64,000 nt of DNA from an uncultured Candidatus Actinomarina sp. (lineage in GTDB: Bacteria > Actinomycetota > Acidimicrobiia > Actinomarinales > Actinomarinaceae), in contig CACDQN010000001.1 in NCBI GenBank assembly GCA_902555055.1, positions 167,535-231,534 on the forward strand, read 5' to 3'. Positions 286 through 23,938 of this stretch are shown here, one piece after another. The notes under the pieces were generated by a model, which was given only the letters and a program-made list of their open reading frames with translations, did no database searches and had not been told where the DNA came from. Position 1 is the stretch's first letter. The number at the start of each line of letters is the position of its first letter. Both the position numbers and the translations under genes were made by a program.

Positions 286-567
286 GTGAAAAAGTTTGCA
301 TTTTTATTGGGTGTATTTTTATTAATGTCACCTGCCGTGCCCCTTTTAGCAGATGATCATAATGGAGAAGATAACTCTATCCCTGAAAATTTACCAGTGC
401 CAGCAATTATTATTGAAGAGCCGCCTGAACAAATCGAAGATGTTGCATGGACATACAAATTTTTAATTCCAACAACTGTTGCAATTGCTACTTTAGTGAT
501 ATTGGGTAATGTTATTCAATACTTTCGCCAAGTGACCCGAAAAAGATATAAGGTTATAGAAAAATAA
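286..567 (+). CDS. hypothetical small single-pass membrane or secreted protein
   Basis: N-terminal signal peptide (MKKFAFLLGVFLLMSPAVPLLA), an acidic Pro-rich segment, a C-terminal TM helix and a basic tail. Confidence 0.4.
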   Translation: MKKFAFLLGVFLLMSPAVPLLADDHNGEDNSIPENLPVPAIIIEEPPEQIEDVAWTYKFLIPTTVAIATLVILGNVIQYFRQVTRKRYKVIEK

Positions 568-582
568 TTTACTTCCCACCCA

Positions 583-1851
583 ATGGTTGATATTCAAAGT
601 AGTGTATCTGATGTTACCAGCACAAGTGATCGGTACGTTATTGCTATTAGCGGAGGAGTTGATAGTGCTGTTCTTACGCATATATTCTATGAATTAAAAC
701 TCAACTTTAGAACGGTATTCATAAATCATAATCAAAAAGGATCTGAAGAACTTAGACAATCAGCTCAGGCTTTATCCGATATTTTAAAATTAAATCATAA
801 ATGTATAGAAACAGACATAGAAATAGACTCTTCAGAAACATTAATGAGAGAGGCTAGGTATGAAGCTTTAAATAATGATATTAATGAAAAAGAAATCCTC
901 GTTACAGCACATCATAGAGATGACAAAATTGAAACATTTTTTATAAATTTATTACGAGGGACTAGATTAAAAGGATTAACTTCAATAGCATTGAAAAGTA
1001 ACAACATTATTAGGCCCATGATTAATATTTCGAAATCACAAATAATGAAATATGCGAAAGAAAATGATATATATTTTCGAAATGATGTTTCAAATTTTGA
1101 CAATAGTATTTTAAGAAATTGGATAAGAAATGAACTAATTCCTGAAGTTGAAAATAGATTTCCAGGAAATTTAAACAACAAAATAACAGACCTAATTTTA
1201 GAAATAGAAGAAAAAACTAAGGAAGATACGGAGATAAAAAAATATATAAAGTATGCCCCAGGGTATTTTGAGATACCTTCCTGTTTGCTAAAGCACAAAA
1301 GTTCTAAAACTAATTATTTACTATCGATTATTTCTCAACTTGTTGGACAATCTGGACTTCAAACATCTGATATTAAAAATATGTTCAAAGCCCTATCCTC
1401 TGGTAAGCAAGTCAGCTATTTTGAAAACTGGATTGTTAGTCAACAGTTGGGTCTTTTAATTTTTGTAAATAAAGAAGAGTGGAAATTTAAACAGAATACA
1501 AATTCATTTGGATATTTCAAATTCGTGACTACCGAGTATAGTGAGAGACGTAATAACTGGTCACTTGCTTTACAAAATATTTCTAATGATCAAATAAGTT
1601 TTGAGTCAGTCTCACCTGGAGATTTCATAATTTTAGATAATAAAAAACAAAAAGTTTCAGAAGTGTTGAGGTCTTCTGGCATTCAAGATGCTCTAAGAGA
1701 GGTTTGGCCATTAGTAAAGAAAGATGATGAAGTCATTTGGATTCCAGGGTTAAGAAAGAGTGACAATGTAAAAGTAAAAGAGTTTGAATCTACTAAAAAT
1801 ATAAATATAATTACAGCTTCAATAGAAAAGAGTACAGTTGGAAATTTCTAA
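583..1851 (+). CDS. tilS: tRNA(Ile)-lysidine synthetase
   Basis: PP-loop motif IAISGGVDS near the N-terminus. Length about 420 aa. It lies upstream of hpt and ftsH as in other Actinobacteria. Confidence 0.85.
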   Translation: MVDIQSSVSDVTSTSDRYVIAISGGVDSAVLTHIFYELKLNFRTVFINHNQKGSEELRQSAQALSDILKLNHKCIETDIEIDSSETLMREARYEALNNDINEKEILVTAHHRDDKIETFFINLLRGTRLKGLTSIALKSNNIIRPMINISKSQIMKYAKENDIYFRNDVSNFDNSILRNWIRNELIPEVENRFPGNLNNKITDLILEIEEKTKEDTEIKKYIKYAPGYFEIPSCLLKHKSSKTNYLLSIISQLVGQSGLQTSDIKNMFKALSSGKQVSYFENWIVSQQLGLLIFVNKEEWKFKQNTNSFGYFKFVTTEYSERRNNWSLALQNISNDQISFESVSPGDFIILDNKKQKVSEVLRSSGIQDALREVWPLVKKDDEVIWIPGLRKSDNVKVKEFESTKNINIITASIEKSTVGNF

Positions 1852-2350
1852 AGTTTTAATTTCTCAAGAGGAGATAGAAAATAAAGTATCTGAATTAGCA
1901 AATGAAATTAACTCTAAATATAAAGGAGAAGAGCTTGTTGTAATTGGCATATTGAAAGGTGCTTTTATTGTCGTAAGTGACCTAGCAAAGCAACTTGATC
2001 TTGACGTAACTTTTGATTTTATGAGTATCAAATCTTATTATGGCTCAGAGTCAACGGGACAAGTCAAAATTGTAAAAGACTTAGAGTATGACATTACAGA
2101 CAAGAATGTACTGATTGTTGAAGATATCTACGACACCGGTCTTACTCTTTCAAATTTAAAAAAACTACTCGAATCAAGAAACCCAAAAAGTATTGAAGTT
2201 TTTTCCATGTTCGTAAAAAAAGAAGTTGCACAAGATCCAATTGAAATTAATTACAGCGGATTCGAAATTGGACCTGAGTTTGTTGTGGGGTATGGACTTG
2301 ATTACAACGGCAAATACAGAGAGCTCCCTTATTTAGCAGTTTTGGCATAA
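1838..2350 (+). CDS. hpt: hypoxanthine-guanine phosphoribosyltransferase
   Basis: PRPP-binding motif VLIVEDIYDTGLTL; 170 aa. TTG start overlaps the tilS end by 14 nt. Confidence 0.88.
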   Translation: MEISKVLISQEEIENKVSELANEINSKYKGEELVVIGILKGAFIVVSDLAKQLDLDVTFDFMSIKSYYGSESTGQVKIVKDLEYDITDKNVLIVEDIYDTGLTLSNLKKLLESRNPKSIEVFSMFVKKEVAQDPIEINYSGFEIGPEFVVGYGLDYNGKYRELPYLAVLA

Positions 2351-2393
2351 ATCTCTATATTGCTTTTAAACCCAACAGTATTAAATTAAGAAG

Positions 2394-4256
2394 ATGGAAA
2401 AGAAACAAGAAAATAAAAAAAGTAACAATAAGTCTATCTTCCTCTATGTTGGCTTAGGCCTATTAATATTTTTTGGCGTTCAGCAATATAACGCATCTGT
2501 AAATGCACCTGAAAGTAAATCATTTACAGTTTTTAAAAATGATATACAGTCAGGCTCCGTTGCAGAAGCAACAATAAAAGAACAATCTAATCTCGTTGAA
2601 TTTAAATTGTTTAACGATGATAAGGTTTACCAAACTGAATATCCAGAAGGTTTTGAGGGAGAGGTATTTCAAATTCTTGTAGATCAAGATATAGTTCTTA
2701 ATACAGATACTGAACCAGCAGGATTTCAAGATTATTTGTTTGCTTTTCTTCCTTGGTTGTTTCTTGCAGCGTTTATGTTTTATATGTTTTCTCAAGTAAG
2801 GTCAAATGGAAATCAAATTATGCAGTTTGGTAAATCAAAAGCCAAAGAGCTAGATGAAGAATCTCCAAAGGTAACATTTACTGACGTCGCAGGTGTTGAA
2901 GAAGCAAAAGAGGAACTTGAGGAAATTAAAGAGTTTTTAAAATCACCTGAAAAATTTAATAAACTTGGAGCAAAAATACCAAAGGGAGTACTTTTAGTTG
3001 GTCCACCCGGAACTGGCAAAACACTTCTTGCAAAAGCAGTAGCAGGAGAAGCAGAGGTACCTTTTTATAGTATTTCTGGTTCTGACTTCGTTGAAATGTT
3101 TGTTGGAGTAGGAGCCAGTAGGGTTCGTGATTTATTTAAAAAAGCTAAAGAGAATTCCCCTGCAATAATTTTTATTGACGAGATCGATGCAGTTGGAAGA
3201 ATGAGAGGAGCTGGGCTGGGTGGTGGACATGATGAAAGAGAACAAACTTTAAATCAACTGCTTGTAGAAATGGATGGTTTTGAAGCAAACCAAGGTGTTA
3301 TATTAATGGCTGCAACAAATAGACCAGACGTACTAGATCCTGCATTATTACGACCAGGACGATTTGATAGACAAGTAATTGTTGGTAGACCTGATTTATC
3401 TGGAAGAACTCAAATTTTAAAAGTTCATGCAAAGGATAAACCCTTAGCTAAGAATGTAAGTTTTGAAACTTTAGCTAAGCAGACACCTGGGTTTACAGGT
3501 GCAGATTTAGCTAACCTGTTAAACGAAGCTGCACTTTTGGCAGCTAGAAAAGATAAAAAAACTATTGGAAATGTCGATATTGAAAACTCTATTGACAGAG
3601 TTATGGCAGGTCCAGAAAAGAAGAGTCAAGTTATGACTGAAGAAGAAAAGAAGATAATTGCTTATCATGAAACTGGACACGCTCTTGTTGGCTGGGCACT
3701 TCCTAATGCAGATCCTATTCATAAAGTTACCATAATTCCTAGAGGTAGAGCCTTGGGTTATACTCAAGCACTGCCGGATAGAGAAAAATACCTATCCTCA
3801 AAAGCAGAATTAAAAGACAGATTAGCAATGTTAATGGGAGGGAGGGTTGCAGAAGAGTTAATATTTGCAGATCCTACAACTGGTGCATCAAATGATATTG
3901 AAAAAGCAACTGATATTGCTAGAAGAATGGTAATGGAGTTTGGTATGAGTGATAAATTAGGTCCAATGTTGTATGGTAAAGGCTCAAATGAAGTTTTTCT
4001 AGGTAGAGACTACGGAAGACAGCAAGATTATTCTGATGAAGTCGCTTCTTCAATAGATGAAGAAGTACGTAATCTTTTAAATGATGCTCATGTTATTGCA
4101 GGTAAAATATTAAAAAAATTTAAAAAACAAATGGACGCAATGGTAAAACAGCTCATGGAAAAAGAAACACTGAATAAGGACGAGGTCGCAGATGTTTTCA
4201 AAAGCATTAAAAAAGTAAAAATTTCAGGAACAGGTAAAAGCTTAAAATTAGCCTAA
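2394..4256 (+). CDS. ftsH: ATP-dependent zinc metalloprotease FtsH
   Basis: N-terminal TM segments, Walker [12 protein letters not shown] box, and the HETGHA zinc-binding motif. Confidence 0.95.
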
Positions 4257-4816
4257 TGGATTATAGTAATCAAATTAAAGTTGACATTGAGAATGCGCTT
4301 GCAGAGTTTATTAAACATAAAACTAATAAGAGTGAAGACGAAGTTGTAAATTTATCTAAAAAATTTCTAAGTCAACTCGATGAAAAACTATCTAACAAAA
4401 CATCTACTAAAGAAATATTTAAACATTTACAAGAAGTAGAACATGATCAACCTATTTATTTAAATGGAATTAATTTTGTCAGCTTATGTGAACACCATTT
4501 ACTTCCTTTTTTTGGCACTGTAGACATAGCTCTGTATCCTCAGAAAAAAATTGCTGGGATATCTCGATTTGATGATTTAGTTCGTTATCTTTCTGACAAC
4601 TTAACACTTCAGGAAACGCTAACTAAAAACATCGCAACCGAAATAGATGAGATTCTGAATCCTAGAGGAGTGTTCGTAAGAACTAATGCTAACCATTCGT
4701 GCTCTGGTTTATTAAATATCGGAGATTCATTTACGGATGTGGTTACTACATTTGCAACGGGTATTTACGAAATAGACCATACCTTGAGAAATGAAGCTCT
4801 CTTAAACTTTAAATAG
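4256..4816 (+). CDS. folE: GTP cyclohydrolase I
   Basis: CEHHLLPF motif; 186 aa. Start overlaps the ftsH stop (TAATGG). Confidence 0.9.
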   Translation: MDYSNQIKVDIENALAEFIKHKTNKSEDEVVNLSKKFLSQLDEKLSNKTSTKEIFKHLQEVEHDQPIYLNGINFVSLCEHHLLPFFGTVDIALYPQKKIAGISRFDDLVRYLSDNLTLQETLTKNIATEIDEILNPRGVFVRTNANHSCSGLLNIGDSFTDVVTTFATGIYEIDHTLRNEALLNFK

Positions 4817-4826
4817 ATAATTAATT

Positions 4827-5567
4827 TTGGAATTAGATAAAACTTTTCTTCATAATTCCAAAAATATTTTAGGAATTGTAAATATTACTCCAGATTCATT
4901 TTCAGGAGATGGCCTCTTTAAAAAAGAAAATAACTTAAGTAAATTATTAGATTTTGCTGAAAGAAATAATATTAACAATTTAGATATTGGCTGTGCCTCT
5001 TCAAAGCCAGGATATGAAAATATTTCTACACAAGAAGAATTAAAAAGGCTTAATTATTTTTTAAGTAATGTGAATGGCAACTTTTCATTATCAATTGATA
5101 CATCTAATCCTATCGTTGCTGAACTAGCACTCAAAAATAATTTTAAAATTTTAAATGATATCAACGGATTCCACGACGAAGAGTTAATTACAAAAGCAAT
5201 TGAATATCAATGTAATGTAATAATTGTACATAGACATCCTGAGTCAAAACACCTGCATGAGAAGATGAATTTTAGAAACAATGTTAAAGAAGTCTTAGAA
5301 CATTTAGAACAAAAGGTAACCCAATTAATCGATAAGGGTATTAATAAACAAAGTATTTTTATTGATCCAGGATTGGGTTTTGGAAAATTCGAACAAGATT
5401 CAGTTGATTTATTAATGAATATTGAGGATTTAGTTGATGAGATACCTGTAGTTGTTGGATATTCAAGAAAAAAATTTATTCAAAAAACAGAAATGAATAA
5501 TAAAGAAATATTTGAACACTGTATTAATTCAGGTGTTGCGTTCGTAAGATTGCATCTTACAAATTAG
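4827..5567 (+). CDS. folP: dihydropteroate synthase
   Basis: N-terminal ILGIVNITPDSFSGDG pterin-binding motif. TTG start. Confidence 0.85.
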   Translation: MELDKTFLHNSKNILGIVNITPDSFSGDGLFKKENNLSKLLDFAERNNINNLDIGCASSKPGYENISTQEELKRLNYFLSNVNGNFSLSIDTSNPIVAELALKNNFKILNDINGFHDEELITKAIEYQCNVIIVHRHPESKHLHEKMNFRNNVKEVLEHLEQKVTQLIDKGINKQSIFIDPGLGFGKFEQDSVDLLMNIEDLVDEIPVVVGYSRKKFIQKTEMNNKEIFEHCINSGVAFVRLHLTN

Positions 5568-5606
5568 TAATTAGTGTAAGATACTAATAGCTTATGGAAA
5601 GGAACT

Positions 5607-6077
5607 ATGGCAGGTTTAAAACCAAATGACTTTCATTGGATTATAGAGGGAAAACTAGCTGTTTCTGAATGTATAGGTGGTGGTGGCCTAACTCCTCGTA
5701 AAATTAGACGAGAAGAAGAAATTCAGTGGATTAAAAGTCAAGGAATCAATGCTATATTTTCACTTCTAGATACTGACTTTAATTTAAAAAACTATCAAGA
5801 AGTTGGGTTTAGAACATACCACTATCCCTTAAGTGAAGATGTACCTACAGAATCTCTGAATATAATTTTTGAAGCTATTAAAGAAGCTCTTTCAGACAAA
5901 GAAAGAAAACTACTAATACATAGAGAGTATTTAGATGAAGAAGTACCTGGAATTCTTGCAGGATATTTAATATATTCAAAACTTTTAGATGATCCAATAC
6001 TTTCTAGAACTATTCTAGAAAAAATACTAGAGAAACCTTTATCACCAAAAGCAATAGCATTAATTCCAGCTGTTTAA
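5607..6077 (+). CDS. dual-specificity/PTP-fold protein lacking the catalytic CX5R loop (putative pseudo-phosphatase), inserted in the fol operon
   Basis: Good SD (AAGGAA) before the ATG. The architecture resembles small archaeal/bacterial PTPs (HWIIEGKLAVSE … YHYPLSEDVP … LLIH-REYLDEEVPG-ILAGYLIY). Arg and acidic residues sit where HCxxGxxR(S/T) is expected. Confidence 0.5.
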   Translation: MAGLKPNDFHWIIEGKLAVSECIGGGGLTPRKIRREEEIQWIKSQGINAIFSLLDTDFNLKNYQEVGFRTYHYPLSEDVPTESLNIIFEAIKEALSDKERKLLIHREYLDEEVPGILAGYLIYSKLLDDPILSRTILEKILEKPLSPKAIALIPAV

Positions 6078-6080
6078 CTT

Positions 6081-6452
6081 ATGTCTTTTGACATAAATAT
6101 CACCGGTATTGAAGCATTTGGCAAACACGGTATCTATCAAAGTGAAAAAAATAATGAACAAAAATTTTTAATAGACATTTTTATTACACTTGAAAAACTC
6201 AGTGATGACAATATTGACAATACCATTAATTATGAGAATCTAGTCGATGATTCAATTGCATTAGTTCAAAATGAATCTTTTGATTTAATAGAAACTTTAT
6301 CTCAGAAAATTGGACAATATATTATTGAAAAATATTCAAATTTAGAATCTTTCAGTTTGAAATATGTAGAAATTACTATTCATAAACCTGAAACCCCTCT
6401 AAGTAATAGAACAGAAAATATTTCTGTAACTTATCATGAACAACTTAAGTAG
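6081..6452 (+). CDS. folB: 7,8-dihydroneopterin aldolase
   Basis: About 120 aa with a GIEAFGKHGIYQSEK-type motif. Sits in the fol operon. Confidence 0.85.
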   Translation: MSFDINITGIEAFGKHGIYQSEKNNEQKFLIDIFITLEKLSDDNIDNTINYENLVDDSIALVQNESFDLIETLSQKIGQYIIEKYSNLESFSLKYVEITIHKPETPLSNRTENISVTYHEQLK

Positions 6453-6909
6453 TATCTATCTTTCTCTTGGCTCCAACATAGGAAATAGAGAAAATAATTT
6501 GAAATTAGCCTTAAAAGAATTATCAGAAATTTTAAGAATTAAAAAAATATCTTCAATTTATGAAACCGAACCTCTTTTATATCAAAAGCAAGATAATTTT
6601 CTTAATATAGTCGTTGAGGTTTCTTATTTCGACGAGGCTGAAAGCCTTCTGAAAAATATAAAAGCTATAGAGAAAAAAATGGGAAGGGAAGCAACCCTTA
6701 GATTTGGTCCAAGAATTATAGATATTGATATTATATTTTTTAATGAACAAGAAATAAATGACGAAAGCCTTACTATTCCTCATAAAGAATGGAAAAACAG
6801 ACTGTTTGTTATTGCTCCGCTTTACGAAGTTTTAGATAGGAAAATTGAGGAAAGTAAATTTAATATTTCTAATCAAAAAGTTATCAGGATAGGTAGTATA
6901 AAAATATAA
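6436..6909 (+). CDS. folK: 2-amino-4-hydroxy-6-hydroxymethyldihydropteridine pyrophosphokinase (HPPK)
   Basis: IYLSLGSNIGNRENNL and GPRIIDIDIIFF motifs. Confidence 0.9.
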   Translation: MNNLSSIYLSLGSNIGNRENNLKLALKELSEILRIKKISSIYETEPLLYQKQDNFLNIVVEVSYFDEAESLLKNIKAIEKKMGREATLRFGPRIIDIDIIFFNEQEINDESLTIPHKEWKNRLFVIAPLYEVLDRKIEESKFNISNQKVIRIGSIKI

Positions 6910-6936
6910 TTACGGGCACCAAAACTAGGGCACGAT

Positions 6937-7758
6937 ATGACAAAAATTATTCATGAAATAAATAAAGATATATATTCAGAAGATACATGTTTCATCCCCA
7001 CAATGGGTTCTTTGCACAATGGACACATTTCTCTAATTGAGCATGCAAAATATACTTCTCACTCAAAAACTATTGTTTCAATATTTGTCAACAGAAAGCA
7101 ATTTAACGACAGTCAAGATTTTCACAACTATCCAATTGACATTGAAAAAGATATAAAATTACTTGAAAAGTCTGATGTTGATTATGTATTTATACCAGAC
7201 GAAAGTTATATATACCCCAATACGAGCATCAGAGAAATAAATGCTGGCCCGATTGGAATTCAATATGAAGGAAAATTTAGAGAAGGACATTTTGATGGTG
7301 TTCTTACAGTTGTAAATAGATTATTTGAATTGGTTAACCCCTCAGCAGCAGTATTTGGAAAGAAAGATGCTCAACAACTTTTTTTAATCAAAGAAATGAT
7401 TAAAAAATTTAAAATGAATATACAAATATATGAAGGAAAGTTAATACGAGAGAAAAGCGGACTAGCCATGAGTAGTCGAAATTTACTTTTAACTGACGAA
7501 GCAAAAGAGAATGCCTCAAATATATATAAAGTACTTTTAAACACAAAAAACTTTTATCAGGACTGTAATTCAATTTCACAATCCATTAGCTATGGAAAAT
7601 CTTTATTTGGAAAGTTAGGGATTAAATTTGATTATTTGGATGCTGTAGATGTTAATTCATTTATAGCTCCAGATAAAAATTCAGAGAAATTATTGTTAAT
7701 TACTGCAGGTTATATTGAAAATATAAGATTAATTGATAATTTAGAAATTTTAAAATGA
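6937..7758 (+). CDS. panC: pantoate--beta-alanine ligase
   Basis: IPTMGSLHNGHISLI (HIGH-like) motif; 273 aa. Confidence 0.9.
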   Translation: MTKIIHEINKDIYSEDTCFIPTMGSLHNGHISLIEHAKYTSHSKTIVSIFVNRKQFNDSQDFHNYPIDIEKDIKLLEKSDVDYVFIPDESYIYPNTSIREINAGPIGIQYEGKFREGHFDGVLTVVNRLFELVNPSAAVFGKKDAQQLFLIKEMIKKFKMNIQIYEGKLIREKSGLAMSSRNLLLTDEAKENASNIYKVLLNTKNFYQDCNSISQSISYGKSLFGKLGIKFDYLDAVDVNSFIAPDKNSEKLLLITAGYIENIRLIDNLEILK

Positions 7759-8522
7759 GTAACATAATTGCGATTGACATAGGCAATACAGAAACAACTG
7801 TAGGTATAGGTGCTAATGGGGCTTGGGACTCTTATAGGTTTACAACAAGAGATACAAATACTTCAGATGAGCTTCTTTCTCTATTTAATTCAACTTTTCA
7901 GATGACTGAAGAGATGAAAAAAAATTTAAGAGGATCAATTATTTGTTCTGTTGTTCCTCAAATTACAACAAATGTAAGTCAAGCAATTAAAAAATACGCA
8001 AATGTTGACTCGTTAATTGTTGGCCCGGGGGTAAAAACAGGACTCAAAGTCAATATTGATAATCCAAAAGAACTAGGACCAGACAGAATTGCTAATTCTG
8101 TTGCGGGTTTTATAAAAACTTCTGATAACGTTATTGTTATTGATCTTGGGACTGCAACAACATTTGACATAGTAAATAAAAATAAAGAATATCTTGGTGG
8201 CTCTATTGCTCCTGGAATTAAAATTAGTTTAGAAGCACTAACTTCCAAAACCGCTTCTTTAAAGTCAGTAGAACTTGACCTTCCAAAAAATGTAATTGGT
8301 AAGAATACATATGAAGCTATACAAAGTGGATTAATACTGGGCCATGCTTCAATGATTGATTCAATGATTGAAAAGATTCTCTTAGAAATTGGTGTAAATC
8401 CAAAAATTATAATAACAGGTGGCTTAAGCAGTATTGTCCATCCAGCTTTAAATATTAATTGTGAATTTATTGAAAATTTAACATTAATTGGTCTTGAAGA
8501 AATATTTAATTTAAATAATTAG
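7755..8522 (+). CDS. coaX: type III pantothenate kinase
   Basis: IIAIDIGNTETTVGI ASKHA-fold N-terminus. ATGA overlap with panC. Confidence 0.9.
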   Translation: MSNIIAIDIGNTETTVGIGANGAWDSYRFTTRDTNTSDELLSLFNSTFQMTEEMKKNLRGSIICSVVPQITTNVSQAIKKYANVDSLIVGPGVKTGLKVNIDNPKELGPDRIANSVAGFIKTSDNVIVIDLGTATTFDIVNKNKEYLGGSIAPGIKISLEALTSKTASLKSVELDLPKNVIGKNTYEAIQSGLILGHASMIDSMIEKILLEIGVNPKIIITGGLSSIVHPALNINCEFIENLTLIGLEEIFNLNN

Positions 8523-8531
8523 GCTGTTAGT

Positions 8532-10019
8532 GTGAGTGAATTATCAAAATCTGAAAATGAAATCTACTCTCTAAGAAAAGAGAAAGAAGAGAATATTAAA
8601 TCTAGTAATCTCGAATCATTTACAACTAGTTTTAAAAATTCGACCAACATAAATTTGCTTCATCAAAATCACAGCAATATTGAGGATGGTGCTAAAACGG
8701 ATATAAGCGTATCTGTTAGAGGCAGAATATTAGGTATTAGATCTTTTGGTAAATTAACTTTTCTTGACCTATCTGATGAAACTGGAAAAATTCAACTCGT
8801 ATCTACTAAAGGACTATTGAGTGAGGAGCTACAAGAATATTTATCAAATATTGATGTTGGAGATATTGCTGGTGCATCAGGAAATGTTATGAAAACTAAA
8901 AAGGGAGAACTCTCAATTGAATTAAAAAATTTTGTTCTTTTGACAAAATCCTTTAGAAACTTTCCAGAGAAATGGCATGGATTAAAAGATAAAGAAACTA
9001 GATTCAGACAAAGATATTTAGATTTTGTAGTTAATGATAGTGCTAGAAATTCTATTAAAACTAGGTTTAAAGTTTTACAATTAATTAGAATTTTTATGAC
9101 ATCTGAAAACTTTTTAGAGGTTGAGACTCCCACATTACAACCTAAGGCAGGAGGTGCAATTGCACGACCTTTCTTGACCCACCACAATGCTATGGGTATT
9201 GATATGTATTTAAGAATTGCTCCAGAGTTATATTTAAAACGACTCGTTATTGGAGGTTTTGAAAAAGTATTTGAATTAGGAAAAGTATTTAGAAATGAGG
9301 GTATTGATCTAACACATTCTCCAGAATTTACGATGATGGAGAGTTACGAAGCTTACACAGATGTCAATGGGGTAATGAATATGGTTGAAAATATGTGTAA
9401 GTATATAATTGAAAATTTAGATAGTGGATACGAAGTAAAATATGCTGGGAAAACAGCTGATTTTAATTTTCCTTGGGAAAGAAAAAGCATGTTTGAGCTA
9501 GTCAGTAAAAAGTTTAGTGTTGAAATATCTCATGATTCTAATCTCGATGATATAAAGACAAAATTTGAAGAGACACACAACATAACTACTGAATCTAAAA
9601 CTATTGGTGAGTTTGTATTTGAATTATTTGAAAATCATATCGAACATGAAATACTAAACCCTCTTTTTGTTACAGACTATCCTAAAGAGGTTTCTCCTTT
9701 TGCTAGGGAAAATAAAGAAAAGCAAGGTATAACTGAGAGGTTTGAGTTATTTGCTTTTGGAAGTGAGTTAGCTAATGGGTTCTCTGAACTTATTGACCCA
9801 AGGGACCAAGAAGAGAGGCTAAAAACCCAAGCTCTTAAAAAGGCAGAAGGGGATGAAGAAGCTCATGTGCAAGATGAAGACTATATAGAAGCTCTAGAAT
9901 ACGGACTTCCACCAACTGGAGGATTGGGATTTGGTGTTGACCGTTTTGTTATGATGCTTACTAATAATGAATCAATTAGGGAAGTTATAGCTTTTCCACA
10001 CATTAAACCTGAGAATTAA
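8532..10019 (+). CDS. lysS: lysine--tRNA ligase (class II)
   Basis: OB-fold anticodon-binding region followed by class II motifs (FRNEGID, GGLGFGVDR); 495 aa. GTG start. Confidence 0.93.
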   Translation: MSELSKSENEIYSLRKEKEENIKSSNLESFTTSFKNSTNINLLHQNHSNIEDGAKTDISVSVRGRILGIRSFGKLTFLDLSDETGKIQLVSTKGLLSEELQEYLSNIDVGDIAGASGNVMKTKKGELSIELKNFVLLTKSFRNFPEKWHGLKDKETRFRQRYLDFVVNDSARNSIKTRFKVLQLIRIFMTSENFLEVETPTLQPKAGGAIARPFLTHHNAMGIDMYLRIAPELYLKRLVIGGFEKVFELGKVFRNEGIDLTHSPEFTMMESYEAYTDVNGVMNMVENMCKYIIENLDSGYEVKYAGKTADFNFPWERKSMFELVSKKFSVEISHDSNLDDIKTKFEETHNITTESKTIGEFVFELFENHIEHEILNPLFVTDYPKEVSPFARENKEKQGITERFELFAFGSELANGFSELIDPRDQEERLKTQALKKAEGDEEAHVQDEDYIEALEYGLPPTGGLGFGVDRFVMMLTNNESIREVIAFPHIKPEN

Positions 10020-10999
10020 GAAGTTCTGTTAATTAGGTAATTGTTTATATTTTCTAAAGTAGGAAACAGGTCATGATTTTTAAGATTGTAAATCGATTCA
10101 ACACTTTTATTGTGGTAACTATAAATTAAATCTTTTGATTTTTCAATAATGTTATCATTTAAAAATTCATTTAATAAAGATTCAATGTTGCTTTTACTTT
10201 CGTGAACAGAATTAATTATTTCTTGATATTTACCCTTATCTGATTCTAGGGCAATAAGAACTGGCAAAGTATACGTTCCTTCGATGATGTCATTACCAGT
10301 AGGCTTTCCAAGGGTTTCTGAGTCAGAAACGAGGTCTAATATGTCATCGGAGATTTGAAATATAATTCCGCAGCTCCATCCCCAATTACTTATCGCATCT
10401 ACAATTTCATGATCAGCATTACTAGCAAGTGCTCCAAGTCTTGCACTTGTTCTGATGAGACTAGCAGTTTTCCCCTCAATTACTTTTAGGTAATCTTCTA
10501 TTGAGTGGTCCATATCAAAAGCTAAATTTAATTCTTTAGTTTGACCTTCGACAAGTTCAGCATAAGTTGACGCAAGTAGTTTTACCGACTCTAAACCTAA
10601 TTCCTCAGCAGCGAGTTCAGAAGATCTTGCTAAAAGATAGTCTCCAGCAAGTATTGATAGAGTTGAATTCCATTTTGAATTAGTGCTTTCAACACCCCTT
10701 CTAGTAGTAGCATTATCCATTACATCATCGTGATACAAGCTTCCAATATGAATAAGTTCCACAGCTACTCCAGCATCAATTATTTTCTTTATATTTTTTT
10801 TCTCATCGCCAAATTTTCCAGAAAGAAGTGAAATAATTGGCCTAAATCTTTTTCCTCCAGCTGTAATTAAATATTGGGAAATAGAAGATAAATATTCATT
10901 TTCTGAACTTGAAACTTGTAAAAGCCTACTTTCTAGGCTATTTAAGTTATCCCACAGATCATCATATGGGATAATTTTTTTAATTTCATTACTTTCCAT
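10016..10999 (-). CDS. polyprenyl diphosphate synthase (trans-isoprenyl diphosphate synthase family)
   Basis: Two Asp-rich motifs, LYHDDVMD and FQISDDILD. Confidence 0.85.
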   Translation of the reverse strand: MESNEIKKIIPYDDLWDNLNSLESRLLQVSSSENEYLSSISQYLITAGGKRFRPIISLLSGKFGDEKKNIKKIIDAGVAVELIHIGSLYHDDVMDNATTRRGVESTNSKWNSTLSILAGDYLLARSSELAAEELGLESVKLLASTYAELVEGQTKELNLAFDMDHSIEDYLKVIEGKTASLIRTSARLGALASNADHEIVDAISNWGWSCGIIFQISDDILDLVSDSETLGKPTGNDIIEGTYTLPVLIALESDKGKYQEIINSVHESKSNIESLLNEFLNDNIIEKSKDLIYSYHNKSVESIYNLKNHDLFPTLENINNYLINRTS

Positions 11000-11078
11000 A
11001 TATAAAGAATACGGTAAATGTATAAATACTTGTAATTTTCATTTAAGTGTATAAACGGATAGTTATTAATATGAAAAC

Positions 11079-13559
11079 ATGTTTGAAAGATTTACAGATA
11101 GAGCTAGAAGAGTTGTTGTCTTAGCTCAAGAAGAAGCCAGAAGGTTAAACCATAATTACATTGGTACAGAGCACATTTTACTTGGTTTAATCCAAGAAGG
11201 TGAAGGACATGCTGCAAAAGCCTTAGAAGAATTAAATATCAATATCGAAAGTGTAAGATCTGAAGTAGTGGAAATAATTGGAGAAGGTCAACAGTCTCCT
11301 AGTGGTCATATTCCATTCACCCCAAGAGCAAAAAAAGTTTTAGAGCTTTCCCTAAGAGAAGCATTACAACTTGGTCATAACTACATTGGAACGGAACATA
11401 TTTTACTTGGTCTTATTAGAGAAGGTGAAGGAGTAGCTGCACAAGTACTCAAAAAATTAGGTGCAGAACTTTCTCAAGTAAGGCAGACAGTTATTAAATT
11501 AATTTCTTCATCCGGAGAAAGTAAAAAACAGCAATCTGCCTCCACTGGAGGTAGAGAAAGACCTGGATCTGGAACTGGCTCAGCTATTTTAGATCAATTC
11601 GGAAGAAATTTAACAAGGATGGCTAAAGAAGGGAAGCTAGACCCAGTTATTGGAAGAACTACAGAGATAGAAAGAGTAATGCAGATACTATCTAGAAGAA
11701 CAAAAAACAACCCAGTGTTAATTGGTGAGCCAGGAGTAGGAAAAACAGCAATAGTTGAAGGCCTAGCTCAAAAAGTTATTTCGGGAGATGTGCCAGTTAC
11801 ACTTGAAGGGAAACAGATTTATACCCTAGATCTCTCAGCTCTAGTTGCAGGATCAAGATATCGTGGAGACTTTGAAGAAAGATTAAAGAAGGTACTAAAA
11901 GAAATTAAAACTAGGGGAGATATCGTATTATTTATTGATGAGATACACACCTTAGTTGGTGCAGGTGCTGCTGAGGGAGCAATTGATGCAGCATCAATAT
12001 TAAAACCTATGTTAGCCAGAGGTGAATTGCAGACTATTGGTGCTACAACTCTTGAAGAATTTAGAAAACATTTTGAAAAAGATGCAGCTTTAGAAAGAAG
12101 ATTTCAATCCGTACAGGTTGACGAACCTAACCTTTCAGATGCAATAGAAATTTTGGATGGACTTAAAGACAGGTACGAAGTTCATCATGGTGTTAGATTT
12201 ACAGATCAAGCCATAGCTTCAGCTGTAAATATGGCAGATAGATATATATCAGATCGTTTTTTACCAGATAAAGCAATAGACCTTATTGATGAAGCTGGAA
12301 GCAGGATGAGAGTATATAAAAAACCTCTTGAACCTGAAAAACAAGAAGTTGCAGACAAGCTAAAAAACCTTAGGGAGCAAAAAATAGATGCTGTACAATC
12401 TCAACTTTATGAAAAAGCTGCACAGATTCGAGATCAAGAAAAGTTATTACTTGATGAAGTGTCTATGGTTTCTTCAAGTGAAGTGTCAGATATAGAAATG
12501 GTAATTGACGAGGAAGAAATTGCAGAAGTTTTAGCTCAATGGACTGGTATACCTGTTCATCGACTCACACAAGAAGAAACTGCAAGACTGCTTGAAATGG
12601 AAAAGGAACTCCACAAAAGAATCATTGGACAAGAAGAAGCAATTACTGCTGTCTCTAAAGCTATAAGAAGAACAAGATCTGGTCTAAAAGATCCAAAAAG
12701 GCCTTCGGGTTCTTTTATTTTCCTAGGCCCCTCAGGTGTCGGAAAAACTGAAACAGCCAAAGCTCTTGCAGAGTTCTTATTTGGCGATGAGGATTCTTTA
12801 ATCCAAATTGATATGTCTGAATATATGGAGAAGCATACAGTAAGTAGACTTATTGGCTCTCCTCCTGGATATGTAGGATATGATGAAGGAGGACAACTTA
12901 CTGAAGCAGTAAGAAGAAAACCATTTAGTATTGTTCTACTAGATGAAGTTGAAAAAGCGCATCCAGATGTTTTCAATACATTATTGCAAATTCTTGAAGA
13001 TGGAAGACTTACAGATGCTCAAGGTAGAACAGTAGATTTCAAAAATACAATAATCATTATGACTTCTAACCTTGGAACTAAAGACTTAGCAAAGAATATT
13101 GGATTTAGTAATTTATCTGATACAGACAATTATGAAAAAATGAAATCAAAAGTTGGAGAAGAGCTTAAAAGATATTTCAAACCAGAGTTTTTGAACAGAA
13201 TTGATGAAACAATCGTATTTCACGAGCTTACACTTGATGAGGTTAAAGAAATTGTTGATCTCATGCTTGATAGAGTTCATGAGCAACTTAAGAATTCAGA
13301 TCTTGAAATTGTACTTTCTGATGAAGCAAAAGAGTATCTTGCTACTGAGGGTTATGATAAAGAATTTGGAGCAAGACCATTAAGAAGATCAATTCAACGA
13401 CTTTTAGAAGACCCACTTTCTGAAGAATTGTTAATGGGTAAATATAAAGCTGGTTCTACAATTGTTGTATCTTTAAACAGTGAAGACAAATCACTTATGT
13501 TTGAACCTGTTGAAGCTCCAGAAGAACCTCCTGTTGATTTTGCAGATTCAGAATCTTAA
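11079..13559 (+). CDS. clpC: ATP-dependent Clp protease ATP-binding subunit ClpC
   Basis: Duplicated N-terminal Clp_N repeats, two AAA modules (GEPGVGKT and GPSGVGKT), and a UVR-like middle domain. Confidence 0.95.
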   Translation: MFERFTDRARRVVVLAQEEARRLNHNYIGTEHILLGLIQEGEGHAAKALEELNINIESVRSEVVEIIGEGQQSPSGHIPFTPRAKKVLELSLREALQLGHNYIGTEHILLGLIREGEGVAAQVLKKLGAELSQVRQTVIKLISSSGESKKQQSASTGGRERPGSGTGSAILDQFGRNLTRMAKEGKLDPVIGRTTEIERVMQILSRRTKNNPVLIGEPGVGKTAIVEGLAQKVISGDVPVTLEGKQIYTLDLSALVAGSRYRGDFEERLKKVLKEIKTRGDIVLFIDEIHTLVGAGAAEGAIDAASILKPMLARGELQTIGATTLEEFRKHFEKDAALERRFQSVQVDEPNLSDAIEILDGLKDRYEVHHGVRFTDQAIASAVNMADRYISDRFLPDKAIDLIDEAGSRMRVYKKPLEPEKQEVADKLKNLREQKIDAVQSQLYEKAAQIRDQEKLLLDEVSMVSSSEVSDIEMVIDEEEIAEVLAQWTGIPVHRLTQEETARLLEMEKELHKRIIGQEEAITAVSKAIRRTRSGLKDPKRPSGSFIFLGPSGVGKTETAKALAEFLFGDEDSLIQIDMSEYMEKHTVSRLIGSPPGYVGYDEGGQLTEAVRRKPFSIVLLDEVEKAHPDVFNTLLQILEDGRLTDAQGRTVDFKNTIIIMTSNLGTKDLAKNIGFSNLSDTDNYEKMKSKVGEELKRYFKPEFLNRIDETIVFHELTLDEVKEIVDLMLDRVHEQLKNSDLEIVLSDEAKEYLATEGYDKEFGARPLRRSIQRLLEDPLSEELLMGKYKAGSTIVVSLNSEDKSLMFEPVEAPEEPPVDFADSES

Positions 13560-23863: not shown

Positions 23864-23938
23864 GCCGGAGTAGCTCAGTGGCAGAGCAGCCGCCTTGTAA
23901 GCGGCAGGTCAGGGGTTCAAATCCCCTCTCCGGCTCCA
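23864..23938 (+). tRNA. tRNA-Thr (anticodon TGT), CCA encoded
   Basis: Cloverleaf readable: acceptor GCCGGAG/CTCCGGC, D-arm GCTC-AGTGGCA-GAGC, anticodon stem GCCGC/GCGGC with loop CTTGTAA, and T-arm AGGGGTTCAAATCCCCT. Confidence 0.9.

Follow-up and report, generated by a model that had tools for sequence, protein, structure and literature searches.

What does a protein with the layout of a small phosphatase, but without the catalytic Cys, do in a folate operon? The question is raised by gene X, an open reading frame (ORF; 5607–6077, plus strand, 156 aa) located between folP and folB in the 64-kb window analysed here, a stretch of ~32% G+C from an uncultured Candidatus Actinomarina sp. (all coordinates are window positions). 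The ORF and its place, as reported in a first-pass annotation of the window, were confirmed by ORF reading and by Pfam matches of the neighbouring genes. It is tentatively proposed that X serves folate synthesis as an accessory protein in the pterin branch, in the manner of a pseudophosphatase, and would act as a binder rather than as a conventional hydrolase.

Fold and conservation of gene X

Homology to phosphatases was detectable from the single X sequence, for which phmmer against PDB gave 25xa_A ("dual specificity protein phosphatase family protein") as top match (E=7e-4). An exhaustive HMMER search identified 293 relatives of X, down to ~26% identity, and a family profile made from 34 of these matched 25xa_A across the whole domain with E=1.1e-12, with weaker matches to VHR/DUSP3, DUSP10, DUSP19, KAP, and Cdc14. 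Structure prediction with AlphaFold (AF2) from an alignment of 15 close homologues was unusable (predicted local distance difference test, pLDDT, of 52.7), and the model used here was obtained from 110 sequences (pLDDT 91.4, predicted template modelling score 0.88). The order of its elements (β1-β2-α1-β3-α2-β4-α3-β5-α4-α5-α6, with a central five-stranded sheet) is the canonical one of protein tyrosine phosphatases (PTPs) and dual-specificity phosphatases (DSPs). Comparison of the model with PDB by Foldseek resulted in 244 matches at E≤1e-3, the best 50 of which were all Cys-phosphatases with template modelling (TM) scores of ~0.6–0.75; VHZ/DUSP23, the baculovirus RNA 5′-phosphatase (BVP), KAP, PIR1/DUSP11, Tk-PTP, PRL, Siw14, PFA-DSP1, and Cdc14 were among the matches listed. 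The small DSP/PTP layout which the first-pass annotation had read from the sequence is borne out by the profile, the model and the structural comparison alike, the predicted fold being PTP-like. X is a member of the PTP/DSP superfamily by both fold and detectable homology.

The VHZ/DUSP23-like atypical DSPs, which include 25xa_A, have the same fold and element order as X and a similar size of ~150–160 aa. They also share with it the motif PxNFxW at the N-terminus, LAxS..PGG after β2, VSL, the His preceding the nucleophile, and G..AxYL in α4, and VHZ itself (4erc) was matched by Foldseek with E=6e-8 and TM 0.67–0.70. It seems secure that the X family descends from VHZ/DUSP23-like DSPs with retention of the fold. 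Differences were identified in an alignment of 311 non-redundant family sequences, 76 from the clade of the window's X (hereafter the marine clade) and 235 from others. In contrast to VHZ and 25xa_A, the family has no nucleophilic Cys (0/311), has acidic residues in the P-loop, carries a 6-residue insertion of HRxVRR type, and possesses E21, N59, and Y63, which are invariant only in X; the window's clade additionally lacks both the P-loop Arg and the general-acid Asp.

X is confirmed as a real and strongly constrained gene, and a chance ORF is ruled out. A word-indexed protein search gave 121 close homologues, nearly all with ≥70% identity and the full-length ones beginning with MAGLKP, from marine metagenomes and from metagenome-assembled genomes (MAGs) labelled Acidimicrobiaceae or Actinomycetota. 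Between the window and the marine relative L001, X is 72% identical compared with 47% for FolE, 41% for FolP, 35% for FolB, and 44% for FolK, which indicates that X is under stronger constraint than these surrounding enzymes. PanC (42%), CoaX (56%), and LysS (55%) are also below X and only FtsH (81%) is above it. The folP-X-folB arrangement is the same in marine relatives with X 72% identical.

It could be argued that X is a decaying phosphatase relic or a mis-called ORF without function, as the canonical catalytic residues are gone and no source provides an annotation. An identical protein is recorded in NCBI and is "hypothetical" in every source, and X itself had neither a Pfam match at E≤1 nor any meaningful NCBIfam match. 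However, at least 558 species and a low-GC (~32%) marine lineage retain X, its conservation exceeds that of the essential enzymes next to it, and its structure prediction is confident. The conservation data effectively refute the idea of a relic or mis-call, which is left with hardly any credence.

Nor is X a single oddity, as it had appeared to be when only the window was considered. A profile search of a set of 5.8 billion proteins gave 3180 family members at E≤1e-3, and confirmed X loci were found in at least 558 species genomes when one genome was scanned for each GTDB species. The best 120 of the 3180 proteins were all unnamed or "hypothetical" and none had a Pfam domain. The best 80 of the at least 558 loci were mostly labelled as Acidimicrobiales or Acidimicrobiaceae MAGs, the rest carrying the generic labels Actinomycetes, Actinomycetota or "uncultured bacterium". 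One X contig of 1.3 kb was labelled Dormibacteria and may be mis-binned. No Pfam or NCBIfam model was found over the family core and no paper describing the family was found in literature searches. The family is a new, Cys-less bacterial version of a well-known fold; its novelty would be categorical only if non-Cys catalysis were demonstrated.

Former catalytic residues and the proposed pocket

In HMMER alignments to 25xa_A, the segment HREYLDEEVPG of X (residues 105–115) is paired with HCRAGYGRTGT, such that the Cys is replaced by Arg106 and the P-loop Arg by Glu112, with His105 being kept. When the signature of Cys-based PTPs and DSPs, HCx5R(S/T), is considered, the window's X has neither the Cys nor the P-loop Arg, and the general-acid Asp is also absent. 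Over the 311 sequences, the Cys position is hypervariable (Q in 169, R in 66, E in 20, K in 16, M in 13, H in 8, G in 7, and others) and is never occupied by Cys. Position 112 is Arg in 211/235 non-marine members, a typical loop being HQEELGDR, and is E, Q or R in the marine clade. The statement of the first-pass annotation that the nucleophilic Cys and the Arg are missing is therefore correct family-wide for the Cys, but for the Arg it applies to the marine clade only, since ~90% of the other members keep it. The loop nonetheless follows a family-wide pattern, H-x-[ED]-x-hydrophobic-x-[DE]-x-x-x-G, of canonical P-loop length and with two conserved acidic residues (107 and 111); that of the window's X has four acidic residues. 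In the equivalent of the general-acid loop (YPLSEDVPT, residues 73–81), position 80 is D in 196/235 non-marine members and P, Q or D in the marine clade, where residues 76–81 are variable; the exact general-acid equivalence within this loop is uncertain by one to three residues.

As Cys was never found at position 106, classical thiol-phosphate chemistry can be excluded throughout the family, and the sequence rules out classical Cys phosphatase activity for X. The window's protein is among the most stripped-down versions of the family. It displays the trait of STYX-type pseudophosphatases, namely the loss of catalytic residues on a PTP/DSP fold under purifying selection, and the alternatives put forward in the first-pass annotation, a pseudo-phosphatase or different chemistry, proved to be the right frame for a family in which the fold is kept without the Cys.

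A nucleophile that has moved within the fold was also considered, with Cys22 as the candidate. This residue is present in 76/76 marine-clade sequences and in the model would lie just past strand β2, beside the P-loop strand. However, position 22 is Arg in 231/235 other family members, so Cys22 is not a conserved nucleophile, and the loop needed for thiolate stabilisation and phosphate binding holds the four acidic residues. Cys22 was rejected as a relocated nucleophile on account of the Arg in the rest of the family, and X being a classical Cys phosphatase of this kind is very improbable; even when pooled with the relic or mis-call reading, it accounts for a very small share of the probability.

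What is known of PTP/DSP-fold pseudophosphatases comes mainly from eukaryotic signalling. X is a Cys-less version of this fold that has become fixed in a bacterial vitamin-biosynthesis operon, in at least 558 species genomes, the labelled records of which are Acidimicrobiia. In the eukaryotic examples (STYX, MK-STYX, and myotubularin-related proteins, and PRLs on CNNM) the nucleophile is replaced and the role is one of binding and not catalysis (PMC2873733, PMC8728433). X is like these in having a PTP/DSP fold with the nucleophile replaced. It differs from them in being bacterial, in belonging to a metabolic operon, and in its acidic P-loop, whereas the eukaryotic proteins act in signalling and bind phosphoproteins or a partner domain. 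In literature searches, no bacterial equivalent of these proteins was found in a folate operon.

The residues found to be invariant in both the marine and the other clade are G3, P6, F9, W11, L17, A18, E21, G24, G25, R31, R34, R35, E37, E38, W41, S52, L53, N59, L60, Y63, P74, H105, G115, G119, L121, and E138. Many of them belong to inherited scaffold motifs, as judged by comparison with 25xa_A and VHZ (PxNFxW, LA.S..PGG, VSL, the His, and G..AxYL). E21, R31, R34, R35, N59, Y63, and an acidic residue at 111 are specific to X and are kept in every subfamily except the most divergent one (P0244). The hallmark of the family is the segment of residues 20–41, SECIGGGGLTPRKIRREEEIQW in the window, with the consensus SERPGGxGxxHRxVRRxEEIxW and with E21, G24, G25, R31, R34, R35, E38, and W41 invariant. 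Compared with 25xa_A it contains the 6-residue insertion, which bears R31, R34, and R35, and in the AF2 model it forms the β2-α1 loop and the start of helix α1. Past strand β3 (residues 52–64), N59 and Y63 are invariant and X-specific, 25xa_A having R and L there, whereas S52, L53, and L60 are conserved without being X-specific (S and L at 52 and 53 are shared by 25xa_A, and VHZ has VSL there). In the predicted model, the X-specific invariant residues would be located at or just past the C-terminal ends of β2, β3, and β5 and at the start of α1, which corresponds to the pocket face of DSPs.

The main family also conserves H30, H58, H72, D80, and R112, none of which is universal and most of which the window's clade has lost. 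A His-rich metal site (H30, H58, H72, and H105), though attractive for the main family, was rejected, as the marine clade has lost H30 and H58 and the P0123 lineage has lost H58 and H72. The core of non-marine members is basic, with a median isoelectric point (pI) of 8.7, whereas that of the marine clade is acidic (median 5.4). Lys/Ala/Pro-rich C-terminal tails of 60–250 residues were seen in main-family members P0142, P0168, P0146, P0455, P0406, and P0135, and a Pfam HC2 (histone H1-like) match was obtained in 3 of the 38 proteins scanned. The basic cores and tails suggest a possible polyanion or nucleic acid binding in some lineages.

Gene neighbourhood and possible function

When loci of other species were searched by tblastn, folP-X-folB-folK was found on one strand in 80/80 loci (the best 80 of the at least 558 GTDB species loci), usually in the order tilS-hpt-(ftsH)-folE-folP-X-folB-folK...panC. 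The first-pass annotation had questioned whether the gene is conserved in the folate operons of relatives or lies at random loci, and the former is the case here. The same four genes were found in L001–L003 (marine relatives), L004–L006, L090, and L095, and L007, which is cut upstream of X, shows X-folB-folK. The gene calls have 4-nt overlaps or abutting genes at the folP/X and X/folB junctions. In the divergent subfamily P0150 (L088) the order is hpt-X-folB-folK::panC, and in the most divergent subfamily P0244 (L089) an ORF without assignment is followed by X, HPPK, and panC, with no FolB being recognisable at the locus. In L088 the double colon stands for a single 436-aa gene (L088:6015-7325) in which HPPK (FolK) is fused to pantoate-beta-alanine ligase (PanC), so that the folate and pantothenate parts of the cluster meet in one polypeptide. 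The upstream ORF of L089 (L089:4327-5004) has 225 aa and no Pfam match, and the HPPK downstream (L089:5564-6307) is extended at its N-terminus by ~90 aa that lack an assignment.

A different context was observed in the P0123/P0475 lineage (Acidimicrobiia label, contigs of up to 3.1 Mb), where the order is tilS-hpt-ftsH-X-DUF2520-panC-coaX-lysS and where folE, folP, folB, and folK were not found within ±10 kb of X (Pfam listing; tblastn at E≤1e-2). X starts here 7 nt past ftsH and overlaps the DUF2520 gene by 4 nt. Between members of the lineage X is 80% identical, compared with 81% for LysS, 75% for PanC, and 72% for TilS. Conserved X is kept at these loci and has thus survived an event in which both neighbouring fol pairs were locally lost or moved elsewhere. 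Adjacency to fol genes thus extends to all 80 species loci and, beside folB or folK, to L088 and L089, with none within ±10 kb in L091–L094. A NUDIX gene (122–124 aa) and a gene for a HAD-family hydrolase were also seen in L092, L093, and L094 (~3650–4818), ~6 kb upstream of X and before a sigma/anti-sigma pair.

An accessory role in the pterin branch is regarded as the likeliest of the readings weighed, given its tight position among FolP, FolB, and FolK and its probable co-expression with them. The former active-site pocket is predicted to have become, by remodelling, a conserved site for non-covalent ligand binding, which would comprise E21 past β2, R31, R34, and R35 on the inserted HRxVRR segment at the start of α1, N59 and Y63 past β3, His105, and the acidic residues 107 and 111. 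X may bind a phosphorylated pterin or guanine-type metabolite or pass it on, or it may assist the neighbouring enzymes. The constraint on the pocket face, the hypervariable former Cys position, and the acidic former P-loop are more easily reconciled with a remodelled binding site than with a hydrolase whose catalytic set is fixed. X may thus add a new accessory factor to the pterin branch, and possibly supply the unassigned dephosphorylation between FolE and FolB, or it may alternatively be a conserved bacterial pseudoenzyme.

Several observations weigh against an accessory pterin role. The supercluster tilS-hpt-ftsH-fol-pan-coaX-lysS is a conserved actinobacterial block of functionally unrelated genes, and adjacency alone is for this reason weak evidence of shared function. 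The P0123/P0475 lineage keeps X 80% identical without nearby fol genes, and if its genomes prove to be without any folate synthesis, the function of X would be folate-independent. The pocket was placed by strand topology and by alignment to 25xa_A and VHZ, rather than by measured distances. Finally, simple phosphate binding in the former P-loop is made doubtful by its two conserved acidic residues.

A serious rival is that X has no specific relation to folate and is a housekeeping pseudophosphatase or binding protein of the tilS-hpt-ftsH...panC-coaX-lysS supercluster, located among the fol genes by chance, which would for example sense a nucleotide or other anionic metabolite or act as adaptor of a neighbouring protein, e.g., FtsH. 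This is considered somewhat less probable than the accessory role. Not only does X remain packed and conserved in the P0123/P0475 lineage while folE-folP and folB-folK are absent locally, and not only are the functions in the supercluster mixed, but the basic main-family cores (median pI 8.7) and the histone H1-like tails of some members are unlike what is expected of a pterin enzyme. However, all other sampled subfamilies keep X beside folB or folK, even where folP and folE are missing from the locus, the fol-less loci may have their fol genes elsewhere in the genome, and no evidence favours any particular other partner.

The gap between FolE and FolB raises a further and attractive option, which the first-pass annotation had put forward as speculation. 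The dephosphorylation of dihydroneopterin triphosphate (DHNTP) is a gap dating from the 1970s, which the Nudix enzymes FolQ/NudB fill in a patchy manner. The gene for the steps leading from DHNTP via dihydroneopterin monophosphate (DHNMP) to dihydroneopterin (DHN) is unassigned in most bacteria, and the candidates Nudix FolQ and HDIG FolQ2 came from the same type of fol-gene clustering (PMC1971073). X could be seen as an active non-Cys enzyme on a PTP scaffold, i.e., the DHNTP pyrophosphatase and/or DHNMP phosphatase missing from Acidimicrobiia and a third non-homologous "FolQ". In such an enzyme the acidic residues 107 and 111, E21, and His105 would hold a metal or water, and R31, R34, and R35 would bind the phosphates. 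The cluster does encode all pterin-branch enzymes save those for the conversion of DHNTP to DHN, its synteny is strict (80/80 loci), conserved Arg, Glu, and His are found on the predicted pocket face, and the high conservation is enzyme-like. Moreover, the top structural neighbours of X include DSPs that act on tri- or pyrophosphates (1yn9, 4mbb, 4jmj, 6byf, and 7moh), namely the RNA 5′-tri/diphosphatases BVP and PIR1/DUSP11 and the inositol pyrophosphate phosphatases Siw14 and PFA-DSP1, so the fold can accommodate such substrates; all of these, however, use the HCx5R cysteine that X does not have.

To our knowledge there is no precedent for hydrolysis on a PTP/DSP fold without Cys, the Cys-equivalent position is hypervariable, and no constant catalytic set exists beyond E21, H105, and the acidic residue 111, since H30, H58, H72, D80, and R112 are not universal. 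X also persists in the P0123/P0475 lineage without fol genes within 10 kb, and Actinobacteria such as Mycobacterium run the folate pathway without X (operon Rv3609c–Rv3606c). A hydrolase role of X is thus unlikely, although it would, if true, represent a new catalytic mechanism for the PTP/DSP fold and a third non-homologous answer to the folate biosynthesis gap. Its likeness to FolQ/NudB and to the candidate FolQ2 is that of a small phosphohydrolase-superfamily gene in a folate cluster at an otherwise gene-less step (PMC1971073), but the folds are unrelated, X has neither Nudix box nor HD motif, and X also occurs in loci without fol genes nearby. No Pfam NUDIX match to X was found at E≤1, the Nudix box Gx5Ex7REUxEExGU is absent from it, and a relaxed expression of the box (Gx5E, 5–9 residues, [RK]Ex2EE) gave no match in ORFs of ≥90 aa within the window. 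Literature searches for a DSP or pseudophosphatase tied to folP or folB, or for a DHNMP phosphatase, gave nothing relevant beyond PMC1971073.

A genuine fusion of X to a folate enzyme would be strong functional evidence, and apparent fusions were seen. Gene calls join FolP to X in P0228, P0237, P0241, P0247, P0248, P0216, and P0199, and X to FolB in P0148, with P0196, P0210, and P0240 having FolB-like C-terminal sequence by eye. Given that folP, X, and folB overlap or abut, one indel is enough to create such a fusion. These "Rosetta-stone" candidates were rejected, as fragmentary Pfam matches and garbled stretches in some of them point to frameshifts or to read-through between overlapping genes and not to true fusions.

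The operon in the window

The genes from tilS to lysS (tilS-hpt-ftsH-folE-folP-X-folB-folK-panC-coaX-lysS) form a tightly packed run on the same strand of the window (Table 1). This run corresponds to the actinobacterial tilS...lysS supercluster of Mycobacterium (Rv3625c–Rv3598c) plus one additional gene. A purine-rich motif resembling a Shine-Dalgarno (SD) sequence is present upstream of X, but its description as a "strong" SD in the first-pass annotation is overstated, as just 3 nt separate the AGGA core from the start codon.

Table 1. Features of gene X and its surroundings (window positions, except where another locus is named).
Feature	Position	Strand	Basis
tilS (583–1851), hpt (1838–2350), ftsH (2394–4256); supercluster part upstream	583..4256	+	ORFs; same order in related loci
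folE (GTP cyclohydrolase I)	4256..4816	+	Pfam PF01227, E=3e-38; start overlaps ftsH stop
folP (dihydropteroate synthase), directly upstream of X	4827..5567	+	Pfam PF00809 (Pterin_bind), E=1e-45
Purine-rich SD-like motif GGAAAGGA upstream of X ATG	5596..5603	+	Read from sequence
Gene X, 156-aa Cys-less DSP/PTP-fold protein	5607..6077 (stop codon included)	+	ORF, ATG start; homologues; fold
Residues 20–41 of X, SECIGGGGLTPRKIRREEEIQW, family hallmark	5664..5729	+	Column statistics on 311 sequences; 25xa_A alignment
Residues 52–64 of X, past strand β3	5760..5798	+	Column statistics; 25xa_A alignment
Residues 73–81 of X, YPLSEDVPT	5823..5849	+	Equivalent of general-acid (D) loop after β4
Residues 105–115 of X, former P-loop HREYLDEEVPG	5919..5951	+	Equivalent of HCxxGxxR; HMMER alignments, 311-sequence statistics
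folB (dihydroneopterin aldolase)	6081..6452	+	Pfam PF02152, E=1e-23; begins 3 nt past X stop
folK (HPPK)	6436..6909	+	Pfam PF01288, E=3e-36; overlaps folB end
panC (6937–7758), coaX (7755–8522), lysS (8532–10019); supercluster part downstream	6937..10019	+	ORFs; same order in related loci
X (163 aa) of fol-less loci	L091:5001-5492; L092, L093, L094:10001-10492

No riboswitch or other structured RNA was detected by Rfam over the 64 kb, the sole match being a tRNA-Thr(TGT) at 23864–23938, and control of the fol genes by a riboswitch or another RNA was rejected. Promoter and terminator scans gave counts at or below the shuffled expectation, and promoter-like sites in 2000–11200 were rarer than in shuffled sequence. 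The lack of RNA elements and the few promoter-like sites are consistent with a long, tightly packed operon.

Upstream of tilS, an ORF of 93 aa (286–567, plus strand) was observed whose product, hydrophobic at the N-terminus and again in a C-terminal stretch, resembles a small protein of the secreted or membrane type. An unannotated gene of 101–124 aa is located at the equivalent place, the metK/tilS gap, in related marine loci.

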